From NCBI RefSeq assembly GCF_054482595.1, contig NZ_JBTHVH010000005.1: a stretch of DNA of 3,781 nt; one strand, 5' to 3'. Each line of letters begins with the position of its first letter. Positions within the stretch are counted from its first letter, which is position 1. This DNA is from a plasmid. Shown piece by piece: positions 1 to 3,781 of this stretch. Under the pieces are notes generated by a model. The model saw only the letters and a list, made by a program, of their open reading frames with translations, had not been told where the DNA came from and ran no database searches. The translations under genes and the position numbers were made by a program.

Positions 1-398
1 GCGTTGCCGGTTTTCCATAGGCTCCGCCCCCCTGACAAGCATCACAGAATCGGACGCTCAAATCAGTGGTGGCGAAACCCGACAGGACTTAAAGATACCA
101 GGCGTTTCCCCCTGGTGGCTCCCTCGTGCGCTCTCCTGTTCCTGCCTTTCGGTTTACCGGTGTCATTCCGCTGTTATGGCCGCGTTTATCTCATTCCACG
201 CCTGACACTCAGTTCCGGGTAGGCAGTTCGCTCCAAGCTGGACTGTATGCACGAACCCCCCGTTCAGTCCGACCGCTGCGCCTGTTCCGGTAACTATCGA
301 CTTGAGTCCAACCCGGAAAGACACGACAAAGCGCCACTGGCAGCAGCCATTGGTAACTTGGTTCGCAGATGATTTGTTAGCTAAACACGAGGTTGCTC

Positions 399-428
399 TT
401 GAAGTGTGCGCATCAGTACGGCTACACT
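399..428 (+). promoter_or_regulatory. RNA I promoter candidate (-35 TTGAAG at 399-404, -10 region gcTACACT at 421-428)
   Basis: Position and sequence parallel the pMB1 RNA I promoter (cttgaag ... ggctacact). Confidence 0.5.
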
Positions 429-434
429 GGAAGG

Positions 435-537
435 ACAGATTTGGTTGCTGTGCTCTGCGAAAGCCAGTTACCACGGTTCAGAAACTTGCCGGTTTACTGA
501 ACCTTCGAAAAAACCACCTTGCCGGGTGGTTTTTTCG
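435..537 (+). ncRNA. RNA I antisense copy-number control RNA (about 100 nt)
   Basis: Antisense to the 5' end of RNA II; begins near acagatttgg as in pMB1/p15A RNA I and ends at a hairpin (ccacc-ttgccg-ggtgg) followed by a T6 run at 530-535. Ends estimated by analogy. Confidence 0.68.
514..535 (+). terminator. RNA I intrinsic terminator (hairpin plus T-run)
   Basis: Stem ccacc (514-518) / ggtgg (525-529) with loop ttgccg, followed by tttttt at 530-535. Confidence 0.6.
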
Positions 538-550
538 TTTTCAGACCAAG

Positions 551-579
551 AGATTACGGCTGTAACACAAGAATCTCAA
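551..579 (-). promoter_or_regulatory. RNA II promoter (-35 TTGAGA = rc of 574-579; -10 TAATCT = rc of 551-556; 17-bp spacer)
   Basis: Reverse complement reads cTTGAGAttcttgtgttacagccgTAATCTcttggtctg, paralleling the pMB1 RNA II promoter TTGAGA-N17-TAATCT. Confidence 0.62.
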
Positions 580-714
580 GAAGATCTTAAAATATGTGGA
601 AAGGATACAGGCTGATAACAACTTCCTCCATAGACATAATCGAACAAAAAATAAACAAAAAAAATGATTTTAAGAGTTTTCTCACACCTAAATAATAGGT
701 AAAATGTTTTTTAT

Positions 715-742
715 TTGATTGGCTTTTAAAATGAAATATACT
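715..742 (+). promoter_or_regulatory. Candidate sigma70 promoter for the AT-rich cargo gene (-35 TTGATT 715-720, 16-bp spacer, -10 TATACT 737-742)
   Basis: Motif match only, in very AT-rich DNA where such matches arise easily. No convincing Shine-Dalgarno before the ATG at 829. Confidence 0.3.
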
Positions 743-828
743 AAATCAGCGAAAATATTCATCACAGCTACTTTAATTTTATTTATTTATTTATCCTATA
801 CTTTAATAACTATTGTTGGTATATAAAA

Positions 829-1143
829 ATGGAAAGTAATTCACCTGATATTGATTTCATCGAGTTATTTCTCTTTCTTAAGAAAAAAATCGTGAGCATT
901 GTTTTGTTTGTTGTTTTCTCATTGATTTTGTCATCTATTTTCTTGTTGGCAAACAAAAACAAAATAAATATAAATTACGAATTAAATATGATCGCTAATT
1001 CACCAGGTATGATTATTAACTGTGGGGATGACTTTTATTGTAAAGCGAATATTATACAATCAATCATAAACAATAAAAGCAAGTTTATAACATCAAATAT
1101 AGATGAGAGAGGAAAAAAAAATAAACCTGTCATGGGCTGGTGA
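829..1143 (+). CDS. N-terminal part of a compact Wzz-like (polysaccharide co-polymerase / chain-length determinant family) membrane protein; ORF ends just after an A9 tract
   Basis: Translation MESNSPDIDFIELFLFLKKKIVSIVLFVVFSLILSSIFLLANKNK... has the Wzz N-terminal signature (compare E. coli WzzB EQIDLIDLLVQLWRGKMTIIISVIVAIALAIGYLAVAKEK as remembered) followed by a TM helix. Very AT-rich, Asn/Lys/Ile-rich. Stop TGA at 1141-1143 follows the A9 run at 1113-1121. Confidence 0.55.
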   Translation: MESNSPDIDFIELFLFLKKKIVSIVLFVVFSLILSSIFLLANKNKININYELNMIANSPGMIINCGDDFYCKANIIQSIINNKSKFITSNIDERGKKNKPVMGW

Positions 1144-1492
1144 TGACCGTTACAAACCCTTGGTTACCGCTGAAGTAAACGCTATCCATAAAGCTATTAA
1201 TGACTGGTACATCCAAGATTATAAAACTTATAAAAGCATAGTTAACAACCAGGATAGCAACTATATAAATGGCACTGAAACATATGCAAAGGTTGCATTA
1301 TTAACTAAAACAAACACTTCCGGAGAAAGAAACTTTATTTCAATCAATACTGAAATAGTAAATAAAAAGTATAAACCAGCTTTAATTATGACTCTAACAT
1401 TAATTATGGCTATTATCCTTTCCTCCTCGTACCATATAATAAAAAGATCTGTACTTGACTATAAAAATAAGTCAAATGGGTCTTTTTATTAG
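1103..1492 (+). CDS. C-terminal part of the same Wzz-like protein, in the +1 frame (periplasmic segment, Pro-containing segment, C-terminal TM helix)
   Basis: The frame stays open from the A9 tract to 1492. The C-terminus KPALIMTLTLIMAIILSSSYHIIKRSVLDYKNK parallels the WzzB C-terminal TM2 region (KKAITLILAVLLGGMVGAGIVLGRNALRNYNAK as remembered). The ATG at 1103 is probably not the real start; the true product would be a fusion with 829..1143. Confidence 0.5.
   Translation: MREEKKINLSWAGDDRYKPLVTAEVNAIHKAINDWYIQDYKTYKSIVNNQDSNYINGTETYAKVALLTKTNTSGERNFISINTEIVNKKYKPALIMTLTLIMAIILSSSYHIIKRSVLDYKNKSNGSFY
1113..1121 (+). repeat. A9 homopolymer at the frame junction of the two Wzz-like ORFs
   Basis: Counted directly: gg + 9 A + taaacc. 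Removing one A (A8) or adding two (A11) fuses 829..1143 to 1103..1492, giving ...NIDERGKKINLSWAGDDRYKPLV... Confidence 0.9.
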
Positions 1493-1544
1493 CCTGTAAC
1501 GATTAATAACCGTATTCAAGCAACATCCGTTACACGCCTGATGC

Positions 1545-1567
1545 AGAAAAGCCCGCTAATAGCGGGC
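1545..1567 (-). terminator. Intrinsic terminator candidate acting on minus-strand transcripts
   Basis: Stem gcccgc (1551-1556) / gcgggc (1562-1567) with loop taata; the A-run at 1547-1550 becomes a U-run after the hairpin only when read on the minus strand (gcccgctattagcgggcuuuucugc). Confidence 0.4.
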
Positions 1568-1586
1568 CTCCCGATAAATCTCACTG

Positions 1587-1613
1587 GGTGATGCCTCTAA
1601 TTAGTTGAATCTG
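1587..1613. repeat. IS1-family left terminal inverted repeat
   Basis: GGTGATGCCTCTAATTAGTTGAATCTG versus rc of right end GGTAGTGCATCCAATTAGTAGAGCATG, about 20 of 27 positions matching. Confidence 0.75.
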
Positions 1614-2479: not shown

Positions 2480-2507
2480 ATTTACCATAACATCTGTTGC
2501 GTGCACC
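2480..2507 (-). other. Xer (XerC/XerD) site-specific recombination core site, cer/psi/mwr-like, 6-bp central region
   Basis: Reverse complement of 2480-2507 reads GGTGCACGCAA-CAGATG-TTATGGTAAAT; compare cer GGTGCGTACAA-TTAAGGGA-TTATGGTAAAT and dif GGTGCGCATAA-TGTATA-TTATGTTAAAT (from memory). XerD arm identical to cer, XerC arm 9/11. Confidence 0.68.
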
Positions 2508-2700
2508 GCCGCAGAGGCCCTCAGCGCGTTTCTGACGGGAAACCGGTAAAACAGGCAACAAACCACCCGAAAACCCGCCAGAAACGCGCAGGCTCTGTTT
2601 TTACGGCATGCATGAGTATGCGCGCAAGTGCATAGTGCGGAAATTCACGCCATTCAGCCGGGGTAAGTCCTGTTTCCGATGTTCTTCTTACCCGAAAACG
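2508..2700 (-). promoter_or_regulatory. Putative accessory region of the Xer site (PepA/ArgR-type architecture), extent uncertain
   Basis: Lies on the XerC-arm side of the core, as accessory sequences do in cer-type sites. GC-rich with gaaaccggtaaaac and tgcatgagtatgcgcgcaagtgcata. I could not confidently identify an ARG box. Confidence 0.3.
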
Positions 2701-2821
2701 GTGAACGGGGACGCAATTTATTGCGTGGCCGTGAGGCGTTGCCGGCACAGCCGGAAAAACCGTTTTCAGCACGTTCAGGAAGGGGGGTGGATGTACAAAT
2801 GGTACAGAGGATGGAACTGAC

Positions 2822-2952
2822 GTAAAAGTGACGTATGAGCTGAAGGAATGATGTAAAAGTGATGTATAAATGATGTAAAAGTGATGCAAAAGCGTTGTAA
2901 AAGTGATGTACAGGCCGAAGGAGTGTTGTAAAAGTGTTGTAAAAGTGATGTA
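2822..2952. repeat. Array of six direct repeats with core GTAAAAGTG(A/T)(C/T)G(T/C)A, three of them followed by C(T/C)GAAGGA(A/G)
   Basis: Core copies start at 2822, 2853, 2875, 2897, 2928, 2939 (spacings 31, 22, 22, 31, 11 bp). Secondary motif ctgaagga/ccgaagga at 2840, 2915, 2957. Degenerate relatives at 2792-2806 and 2968-2982. Confidence 0.85.
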
Positions 2953-2996
2953 TGAACTGAAGGAGCGATGTAATTCTGTAGTCAGGAAGAATAACC

Positions 2997-3016
2997 CGTT
3001 CATGCAGGCATGAACG
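2997..3016. repeat. Perfect palindrome cgttcatgc-ag-gcatgaacg (9-bp arms), followed 16 nt later by a T8 run (3033-3040)
   Basis: Read directly; arms are exact reverse complements. Confidence 0.85.
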
Positions 3017-3187
3017 ATACAGTGAGGAACGCTTTTTTTTGTCACGATCTCCCCTTAACCTGCGTAAATCACCCTCCATGGTTGATTATTTTTCAACCTC
3101 AAAATGGTCATACACCTAACGCAGCCGCGATTTTCATCGCAACTGCATGAATTAAAAGAAAAAAAAGGAATGCTTCGTTTTCACGAG

Positions 3188-3203
3188 TAATACCCAGGTA
3201 TTA
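3188..3203. repeat. Inverted repeat TAATACC-ca-GGTATTA
   Basis: Read directly; 7-bp arms, 2-bp spacer. Confidence 0.8.
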
Positions 3204-3241
3204 AAAACCCACTGTAATTACATGAAAATAAAGAAATAAAA

Positions 3242-3261
3242 GGTAATACCGGCGTATTACC
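3242..3261. repeat. Inverted repeat GGTAATAC-cggc-GTATTACC, related to the palindrome at 3188-3203
   Basis: Read directly; 8-bp arms, 4-bp spacer; shares the GTAATAC half-site with the upstream palindrome. Confidence 0.8.
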
Positions 3262-3469
3262 ACGTACGCGGGCAAGCGAAAAAGCTATAACGCTTCCCGG
3301 CCGACAGGCGGCCCAGAATCCACAGGGGCATGCAGGATCTCTTCAGTAACCTTCGCCATTAAATCAAAAAGGTCATATTCGCCGGGAAGCTGCGTATCAG
3401 TCGAACCCCGTTGTTCATCATATTCAGATGGCATGGGGTGATATCCAGTAGCAGAGAGGTTGTTAGCGG

Positions 3470-3560
3470 GTTTCGGGGCGCAGCCCTGAACCAGTCACGT
3501 AGCGCTAGCGGAGTGTATACTGGCTTAAAATGTAACATCGCAGAAACATAATGCATAGCT
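3470..3560. other. ColE1-type bom / oriT (basis of mobility) region, nic site expected near 3520-3530
   Basis: ggcgcagccctgaaccagtcacgtagcgctagcggagtgtatactggcttaa closely matches the pBR322/ColE1 bom sequence (ccagtcacgtagcgatagcggagtgtatactggcttaactatgcgg, from memory). Confidence 0.7.
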
Positions 3561-3599
3561 GCCACATAAAGCAGGTGTAATGCCATGGCGGGCGCGTAA

Positions 3600-3781
3600 G
3601 CAGAAAATGCAGGACCGGTGATATTCCGCTTCCTCGCTCACTGACTCGCTACGCTCGGTCGTTCGGCTGCGGCGAGCGGGGAAAGCATGCCCGGGAATGG
3701 AAGCTACATGATCCACAGATTCAGGGGAGAAGCGGCAGAAGAACATGTGCGCAGGAAGAAAGGCCCGGAGAGAGGATCCCG
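3600..3781 (-). other. ColE1-family ori-proximal backbone, continuous with position 1 if the molecule is circular
   Basis: gatattccgcttcctcgctcactgactcgctacgctcggtcgttcggctgcggcgagcgg matches p15A/pMB1. atccacagattcagggga...gaacatgtg parallels pMB1 ttatccacagaatcaggggataacgcaggaaagaacatgtg, including a partial DnaA-box-like tccacag. Confidence 0.7.

Follow-up and report, generated by a model that had tools for sequence, protein, structure and literature searches.

Small plasmids of the ColE1 family replicate by a mechanism that has been reviewed in PMC5043065, and mosaicism among ColE1-like plasmids is documented (PMC5864857, PMC2831885, PMC8683028, PMC10454011). The stretch described here is a plasmid contig of 3,781 nucleotides (NZ_JBTHVH010000005.1 of assembly GCF_054482595.1), which is referred to as the window over its full length. 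It very probably represents one full 3781-bp copy of a small, high-copy-type, cryptic Enterobacteriaceae plasmid of the ColE1 family whose origin is modular and recombinant. Described counterparts include p3_MLi104-1 (NZ_CP116921.1), p30COLEC-3 (NZ_CP070933.1), and pOW1E2d (NZ_CP067249.1), small cryptic plasmids of E. coli and Salmonella that have the same size class, gene order, and origin type as the window. These three also feature the GNVR/Wzz-like gene, the IS1 remnant, the cer-like site, the 11-bp repeats, the open reading frame (ORF) of 49 amino acids, and oriT. The origin region (3440-640) of NZ_CP116921.1 is 99.5% identical to the window, whereas the block 2367-3440 has diverged in the three plasmids (84–96%) and their cargo gene is intact, with a run of eight adenines (A8). 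Plasmid A of E. coli S1 (NZ_CP010227.1, 5101 bp, mobilizable) shares the entire origin, the junction, the cargo gene, and the IS1 remnant with the window, but it carries mobC and mbeA where the window has 2580-3456.

The origin of p15A, used in pACYC-type vectors, has the same ColE1-type layout as the window and is 94–97% identical to it in the block that resembles a primosome-assembly (pas) region. p15A differs in the spacer past the origin, which is unrelated and lacks the DnaA-box motif, and in the RNAI region, which is 56–67% identical and has three loops that are all unlike those of the window. Because of this low identity and these different loops, the incompatibility specificity of the window is probably not that of p15A. 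pMB1 (pBR322/pUC) and ColE1 (NC_001371.1) have the same mechanism and landmarks, share the post-origin motif ATCCACAGAaTCAGGGGA..GAAAGAACATGTG, and feature an oriT and a cer-type site related to those of the window. The window differs from both in its RNAII body, in the presence of p15A-type deletions, in its RNAI (~57% identical), and in the absence of rop, mob, and colicin genes; the center of its cer-like core is 6 bp compared with 8 bp in ColE1. The qnrB19 ColE-like plasmids of the pAM1/pPAB19 type share the block with the cer accessory region, the 11-bp repeats, and the 49-residue ORF at 96–99% identity. For pAM1, one report describes oriV, RNAI, RNAII, iteron-like repeats, a Xer module, and an oriT that is not accompanied by mob genes (PMC10454011). 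Plasmids sharing 2580-3456 differ from the window in their cargo, which is qnrB19 or a restriction-modification system rather than IS1 and the Wzz-like gene, and at least CP099031.1 has another replicon type, rep_cluster_2335, whereas NZ_CP116921.1, a relative of the window, has type 2358.

A probable circle opened within its origin

Relatives were identified by megablast in PLSDB (72,556 records) and in all complete RefSeq E. coli genomes. Near full-length relatives of 3673–3734 bp cover 94–96% of the window at 96–97% identity, and they include NZ_CP067249.1 (3673 bp, circular), NZ_CP116921.1 (3713 bp), NZ_CP070933.1 (3723 bp), and two plasmids of 3734 bp. Comparison of NZ_CP116921.1 with the doubled window gave a 3174-nt alignment that crosses the 3781/1 junction and a second alignment of 375 nt; the plasmid is colinear with the whole circle, and its length differs solely in the tandem-repeat region (169 vs 234 bp). 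The junction is continuous in other plasmids. Positions 3682-3781 joined to 1-100 match positions 2976-2777 of NZ_CP010227.1, which are internal to that circular plasmid, at 200 of 200 positions without a gap. The sequence of a 114-nt junction probe stands uninterrupted in the interior of 16 PLSDB records, with an identity of at least 96.5% in all of them and of 100% in four. No terminal redundancy was found in the window. At the join, GGATCCCG runs directly into GCGTTGCCGGTTTTCCATAGG, and the two align column for column with GGCCGCGTTGCTGGCGTTTTTCCATAGG of pMB1 and with the equivalents in ColE1 and p15A.

An earlier note, made from the letters of the window, had proposed a complete circular replicon of about 3.8 kb that belongs to the ColE1 family, is linearized within the origin, and whose ends together rebuild a contiguous ori segment. 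The window end (...aaaggcccggagagaggatcccg; ...AAAGGCCCGGAGAGAGGATCCCG) and start (gcgttgccggttttccatagg...) that were quoted there are present as written, and the proposal is borne out by the colinear relatives and the shared junction, while membership in the family and the position of the opening are supported by the RNAI match (97 bits), by the origin motif TTTTCCATAGGCTCCGCCCCCC, and by the presence of the RNAII body with its two C6 runs. We infer circularity of the contig from its relatives, which provide strong evidence. The assembler appears to have opened the circle about 10 nt past the predicted RNA-to-DNA switch. The plasmid is cryptic, non-self-transmissible, and of the ColE1 type, and it features no resistance or virulence cargo. 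The significance is little beyond correct bookkeeping of the contig.

Segments of the origin and their nearest relatives

The p15A and pMB1 reference origins used for comparison are 100% identical over their full 830 and 776 nt to E. coli records that carry pACYC-type or pUC-type DNA, and the ColE1 reference is NC_001371.1. They were aligned with the window, NZ_CP010227.1, NZ_CP116921.1, NZ_AP027805.1 (a 3525-bp E. coli plasmid with the same cargo), NC_010487.1 (pSMS35_3), NZ_CP056641.1 (a 2581-bp Citrobacter plasmid, alignment entry L010), and NZ_CP087286.1 (a 4892-bp Leclercia plasmid, entry L011). The earlier note had placed the body of the ori closest to p15A, and the alignment agrees: the RNAII body at 33-360 is 95% identical to p15A compared with 83% for pMB1 and 82% for ColE1, and its core at 56-345 is 97% identical to p15A compared with 79% and 78%. 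NZ_AP027805.1, pSMS35_3, the Citrobacter plasmid, and p15A are all near the window over this core (97–100%). The block from 3680 across the join to 55 has other relatives. It is 99% identical to the Citrobacter plasmid and 89% identical to the Leclercia plasmid, and it is far from NZ_AP027805.1, pSMS35_3, and p15A (51–53%; 52% for p15A and 60% for pMB1). Within this block, positions 3680-3781 are 99–100% identical in alignment entries L001, L008, and L010, 85% in the Leclercia plasmid, 32–33% in NZ_AP027805.1, pSMS35_3, and p15A, and 49–56% in pMB1 and ColE1. The RNAI region (346-538) is 99% identical to NZ_AP027805.1, 67% to the Citrobacter plasmid, and 56–57% to p15A and pMB1. The origin-proximal block occurs in just 47 of the 72,556 PLSDB records, compared with at least 5000 records that match the whole-window query, and the control region of the window type (346-600) is at least 99% identical in just 16 records. 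The Citrobacter and Leclercia plasmids have an RNAI type that is 93% identical between them and 66–67% identical to the window; the stretches of NZ_CP056641.1 compared for RNAI type and DnaA box were 414-527 and 930-1040.

A recombination signal was observed in the triplet of the window, NZ_AP027805.1, and NZ_CP056641.1. The identity between the window and NZ_AP027805.1 is 100% over 56-435, 97–99% over 436-600, and just 33% over 3680-3781, and the Citrobacter plasmid shows the opposite pattern. Between 3680 and 52, every informative site (73 of 73) groups the window with the Citrobacter plasmid, and from 188 to 600, 87 of 88 group it with NZ_AP027805.1. The maximum chi-square is 157 (permutation p ≤ 0.0005), with the breakpoint in 53-187. 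A body that is 100% identical beside a spacer that is 33% identical is more than the gradual divergence of an unconstrained spacer could bring about, and recombination is therefore taken as the explanation. The earlier claim of a recombinant ColE1-type ori thus holds as far as the recombination is concerned, with a parentage switch between 52 and 188 and incongruent segments on either side, and fails if p15A and pMB1 are understood as the donors. A localized breakpoint with differing nearest relatives was found, and neither p15A nor pMB1 was found to be a parent. These comparisons support a modular and recombinant origin that consists of a p15A-type RNAII body, an origin-proximal block, and an RNAI specificity region of a third history. 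p15A and pMB1 serve as lineage labels here, whereas wild plasmids were the donors. Homologous recombination between co-resident ColE1-like plasmids at highly conserved flanks is the most likely cause.

The anchors GCGGCGAGCGG and TTTTCCATAGG delimit the spacer, which comprises 3681-3781 and a few further bases and whose identity to any reference is just 41–56% in a MAFFT alignment. Local alignment of this spacer gave z scores of 13.5 for pMB1, 11.4 for ColE1, and 0.5 for p15A, and the observed score was reached by 0 of 500 shuffles for pMB1, 0 of 500 for ColE1, and 149 of 500 for p15A. The suggestion that 3690-3781 resembles pMB1 more than p15A is upheld by these scores, at a whole-segment identity of just 49–56%. 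The likeness to pMB1 and ColE1 is confined to a motif of about 55 nt, ATCCACAGAtTCAGGGGA..GAAGAACATGTG..AAAGGCC, which begins with the DnaA-box-like TGATCCACA. The same columns hold a perfect TTATCCACA in pMB1, ColE1, NZ_CP056641.1, and NZ_CP087286.1, p15A has nothing there, and NZ_CP010227.1 and NZ_CP116921.1 share the TGATCCACA of the window. A DnaA box is known at that position in pBR322 and ColE1. The origin-proximal block thus appears to have its nearest relatives among wild Citrobacter and Leclercia plasmids and to keep a ColE1/pMB1-like DnaA-box motif. The adjoining 65-bp block at 3615-3679 is 91–97% identical to p15A, pMB1, ColE1, and alignment entries L009 and L010, and we take it to correspond to the primosome-assembly region of pBR322 and ColE1.

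Alternatives to a complete recombinant plasmid

Vertical descent from a p15A-like ancestor would explain the origin without recombination if the spacer past the origin is unconstrained and fast-evolving; the likeness to pMB1 and ColE1 would then be a retained or convergent DnaA-box motif that was deleted in p15A. In every comparison, conservation is indeed lowest in the region past the origin, the common motif is short and contains a plausible protein-binding site, and the p15A spacer is shorter than that of the window (86 vs 111 nt), as a deletion predicts. A simple deletion would, however, leave similar flanks, and the spacers of the window and p15A have no residual similarity; this and the clean switch of parentage led to the rejection of a simple deletion in the p15A lineage. 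The opposed identity patterns of NZ_AP027805.1 and NZ_CP056641.1 also speak against vertical descent, which is considered improbable. There is slightly less to be said for the possibility that the window is just part of a larger plasmid or cointegrate, or that assembly fused two co-resident ColE1-like plasmids into a chimera via shared repeats. Strains often hold several ColE1-like plasmids with long common stretches that are able to mislead assemblers, and the window does look like sequence of the NZ_CP010227.1 type (99.8% identical over the shared 75% of the window) combined with a block, 2580-3456, that another plasmid shares at 99.4% identity. Additionally, the A9 run that disrupts the cargo gene could be a sequencing error. 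Independent plasmids of 3673–3734 bp nevertheless have the same gene order with the same block in place, and the architecture is therefore natural; the join of end to start is contiguous in the 16 records described above, and the window holds every element that a ColE1 replicon needs, with no feature truncated at its ends. A fragment or chimera is accordingly judged unlikely. A laboratory p15A-based cloning vector, present as contamination or as the source of the window, would account for the 95–97% identity of the RNAII body to the origin of pACYC-type vectors. The window has no selectable marker, polylinker, or other vector part, its RNAI region is unlike that of p15A, its cargo is a wild Wzz/YkgH-like gene with an IS1 remnant, and its close relatives were isolated from humans, animals, and water on several continents. 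A vector origin has next to no probability and is refuted for practical purposes.

Several points weigh against the reading of the window as a complete plasmid with a recombinant ColE1-type origin. The case for circularity is built on relatives rather than on reads of the same sample. No PLSDB record or complete RefSeq E. coli record matches the whole window above about 97%, and the exact combination of modules is unconfirmed by an independent isolate. Any of the three plasmids of the triplet may be the recombinant. One match to the DnaA box with at most one mismatch is present in the window compared with 1.09 expected, a count at chance level, so that the case for the DnaA-box-like site is one of positional homology only. 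The single-strand DNA fold of 3612-3690 is no better than that of shuffled sequences (z +0.47) and so lends a pas hairpin no structural support. Neither of the two predicted promoters, for RNAI and for RNAII, appeared in the output of a generic sigma-70 promoter scan, and both were assigned by homology instead.

Landmarks of the window and meaning of the mosaic

Table 1. Positions of the recognized and predicted features in the 3781-nt window.
Positions	Strand	Feature	Basis
1..3781		Whole plasmid, very probably one full copy, ColE1-type	Colinearity with relatives across its own ends; no terminal redundancy
1..52		Origin-proximal variable block, part 2, across the join and spanning the switch point	Informative sites
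9..16	-	Predicted origin, RNase H/RNA-to-DNA switch inside CTATGGAAAACCGG	Aligned with CTATGGAAAAACGCC of pMB1 and ColE1
12..543	-	RNAII pre-primer, ~532 nt, predicted start to origin	Antisense overlap with RNAI; p15A identity
399..428	+	Predicted RNAI promoter, TTGAAG, 18-nt spacer, TACACT	Read from sequence; homology
436..538	+	RNAI, antisense copy-number control RNA	Rfam RF00106
551..579	-	Predicted RNAII promoter, -35 TTGAGA (574-579), 17-nt spacer, -10 TAATCT (551-556)	Homology
829..1492	+	Gene for a two-transmembrane Wzz/GNVR (YkgH-like) protein, frameshifted	Pfam
1587..2342	+	Degenerate IS1-family element	Domain hits
2480..2507	-	cer-like XerC/XerD core, GGTGCACGCAA-CAGATG-TTATGGTAAAT	ColE1 cer alignment
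2508..2700	-	Putative cer-like accessory region with ArgR-box-like GCATACTCATGCATGC and GGGTGGTTTGTTGCC stretch	Global alignment with ColE1 cer
2580..3456		Backbone block common to other small ColE-like plasmids	BLAST
2821..2973	+	11-bp direct repeat array, consensus TGATGTAAAAG	Tandem Repeats Finder
3285..3434	-	49-residue ORF, RefSeq name AbrB/MazE/SpoVT family	WP_001442891.1 in relatives
3464..3530		ColE1-type oriT (bom), GTATACTGG/CTTAA at 3515-3528	ColE1 alignment
3615..3679		Conserved block TTCCGCTTCCTCGCTCACTGACTCGCTACGCTCGGTCGTTCGGCTGCGGCGAGCGG, presumed primosome-assembly (pas/n') region	Homology
3680..3781		Part 1 of the origin-proximal variable block, where synthesis would begin past the predicted switch	Segment identities
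3709..3717	+	DnaA-box-like site TGATCCACA, one mismatch from TTATCCACA	Positional homology

The window features what defines the ColE1 family, an RNAI with three stem-loops, an RNAII with G-runs, and the origin motif, together with the absence of a Rep-family match in the eight ORFs that were scanned against Pfam and NCBIfam. RNAI was the one strong hit of the Rfam scan, matching the full model with 97.2 bits (gathering threshold 47) and an E value of 3e-18. It folds into three stem-loops with −45.1 kcal/mol (z −5.6), and in the alignment all three loops are unlike those of pMB1 and ColE1 as well as those of p15A. Both hexamers of the predicted RNAI promoter have the same letters in aligned pMB1 and ColE1, where we take them to be the RNAI promoter. 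Since RNAI is the antisense counterpart of the primer transcript at its 5' end, RNAII lies on the minus strand and runs from about 543 towards position 1; given this direction, the RNA-to-DNA switch would fall within CTATGGAAAACCGG, at about 9-16, its exact position being presumed from what is established for ColE1. The hexamers of the RNAII promoter are identical in aligned p15A, pMB1, and ColE1 and lie about 530 nt from the origin motif (TTTTCCATAGGCTCCGCCCCCCTGAC), which at 11-36 is itself identical in these three origins. The C6 runs at 27-32 and 256-261 correspond to the G-runs of RNAII, which in ColE1 serve the formation of a persistent hybrid. Neither Rop nor MobC was found in the window by tblastn, and the ColE1 Rop query returned nothing below an E value of 0.2; Rop/Rom, which is accessory and not defining for the family, is thus absent from the window. 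rop is missing from many natural ColE1-like plasmids (PMC8683028). A 41-residue ORF at 247-372 on the plus strand, which RefSeq names a replication initiation protein in relatives (WP_072006160.1), lies wholly inside the RNAII region. It has no Pfam or NCBIfam family match, and the name is probably an artefact of annotation propagated through hundreds of records.

The biochemical steps of replication are inferred from the ColE1 paradigm. Host RNA polymerase would transcribe RNAII on the minus strand from about 543, the transcript would form a persistent hybrid at the origin (~9-16), and, once cut by RNase H, it would prime DNA polymerase I. Synthesis would then cross the start of the window into 3781...3680 and pass the DnaA-box-like site and the pas-like block, where loading of the replicative helicase would take place. 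The copy number would be set by the antisense RNAI, with no Rop to assist it.

The oriT of the window, which contains GTATACTGGCTTAA, is 41/44 identical to ColE1 1531-1489, and the alignment extends to ...GTGTATACTGGCTTAA. The nic position presumably lies within the sequence at 3515-3528. The close relative NZ_CP116921.1 is typed as mobilizable with no relaxase listed, and an oriT without mob genes would permit mobilization only with helper plasmids. The cer-like core was aligned with GGTGCGTACAA-TTAAGGGA-TTATGGTAAAT of ColE1 cer, at 3909-3938 of NC_001371.1. The XerD arm is identical at 11 of 11 positions and the XerC arm at 8 of 11, and the central region is 6 bp (CAGATG) instead of 8 bp. 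The accessory region contains a 53-nt BLAST match that is 77% identical to ColE1 3896-3844, so that by its sequence the site would qualify as a cer-type site with an accessory region. Multimers would be resolved there by the host XerCD.

The cargo protein matches the Pfam GNVR domain with an E value of 1.7e-8, and the match to the Wzz N-terminal domain is weak. By domain content it may be a miniature polysaccharide co-polymerase-like protein. A run of nine adenines (A9) at 1113-1121 splits the gene into two ORFs, whereas three relatives have A8 and an intact frame of 220 residues; the A9 run reflects either a genuine slip, inactivating or of the phase type, or an error in sequencing the homopolymer. 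In tblastn searches the protein is 26–27% identical over its full length to chromosomal YkgH of E. coli, and the gene occurs in 54 PLSDB records, mostly small ColE1-like E. coli plasmids. The gene is AT-rich (22–36% GC). The IS1-family element has domain hits to the InsA zinc ribbon (E 1e-19), the InsA helix-turn-helix (E 1e-27), and DDE_Tnp_IS1 (E 8e-60). Its insA starts with ATA instead of ATG, and its insB is frameshifted and has lost the N-terminal (5') part. The element is divergent with recognizable terminal inverted repeats, and reading of the sequence revealed no target-site duplication flanking it. Relatives annotate it as a frameshifted IS1 transposase, and NZ_AP027805.1 has an intact IS1 copy at the same place that is annotated with a programmed frameshift.

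The 877-bp backbone block at 2580-3456 sits between the cer-like site and oriT. It is 99.4% identical to CP099031.1 (3861 bp), which carries a HindIII-family restriction-modification pair, and 96–99% identical to small plasmids that include 2963-bp plasmids annotated with QnrB19; 1675 PLSDB records match it. One short non-coding backbone module thus serves very different cargos. The part that NZ_CP010227.1 shares with the window runs from 3457 through the origin to 2579. Xer and oriT sites are given as exchange points in such plasmids by PMC8683028 and PMC10454011, both of which cite Tran et al. 2012, where exchange mediated by these sites was reportedly described. In the window, however, the similarity ends some way from both sites: one boundary is about 70 bp away from the Xer core, and the other is about 66 bp away from the predicted nic site. 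Housekeeping functions occupy a GC-rich half of the circle and the cargo an AT-rich half, a division that matches the "mosaic genetic structure" of ColE1 plasmids (PMC5864857; PMC2831885).

Within the block, Tandem Repeats Finder reported 9.6 copies with period 11 at 2849-2952 and period 42 at 2852-2973. The 11-bp repeats, which correspond to one helical turn, are interspersed with GAACTGAAGGAG-like units, lie where the G-over-C skew is strong (+0.42 to +0.56), and form an array whose length varies between relatives. An array of 11-bp direct repeats in pAM1 is called iteron-like in PMC10454011. pMUB-MIN9-7, a near-twin of pAM1, matches the block at 96.6%, and the likeness to the pAM1 repeats themselves is by description. 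No Rep protein that could bind iteron-like repeats is encoded among the eight scanned ORFs. On the minus strand, a long ORF (2521-3045) crosses the repeats; neither Pfam nor NCBIfam gave a match for it, and it is regarded as spurious. The 49-residue ORF has no hit in either database, and the ORF list features no toxin-sized ORF downstream of it; it is probably a C-terminal remnant of a MazE-type antitoxin. A terminator-like hairpin at 3261-3242 on the minus strand follows this ORF. The DNA of the ORF is better conserved than the surroundings (5% vs ~16% divergence), and comparison with a relative showed five nonsynonymous and three synonymous changes, which is no evidence of purifying selection. 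Caution is due for the "AbrB/MazE" and 41-residue "replication initiation protein" annotations on relatives.

The recombination within the origin can be demonstrated cleanly, yet it is in line with the known mosaicism of ColE1-like plasmids. The exact combination of modules is reproduced by no record of the databases searched, and the plasmid is otherwise an ordinary member of a well-populated family. The RNAII body, the origin-proximal block, and the RNAI region each have a different nearest relative, and trees based on RNAII can therefore mislead, as can single-marker typing, when a clean three-way mosaic is present within an origin of 1 kb. Incompatibility behavior likewise is not readable from similarity to p15A. 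A more speculative idea, which is held with low confidence, is that the stretch from the switch to pas (~3680 to 52) is a discrete exchangeable cassette of ColE1-type origins. Such a cassette may carry the helicase-loading determinants, with a DnaA box that is present, degenerate, or absent, and its exchange may be uncoupled from the RNAII body as well as from the RNAI module for copy control and incompatibility; the R-loop and D-loop of initiation might themselves promote the exchange. If this is true, natural ColE1 origins would be three-module assemblies rather than one co-evolving unit, and origin-based replicon typing and origin phylogenies would be systematically confounded.

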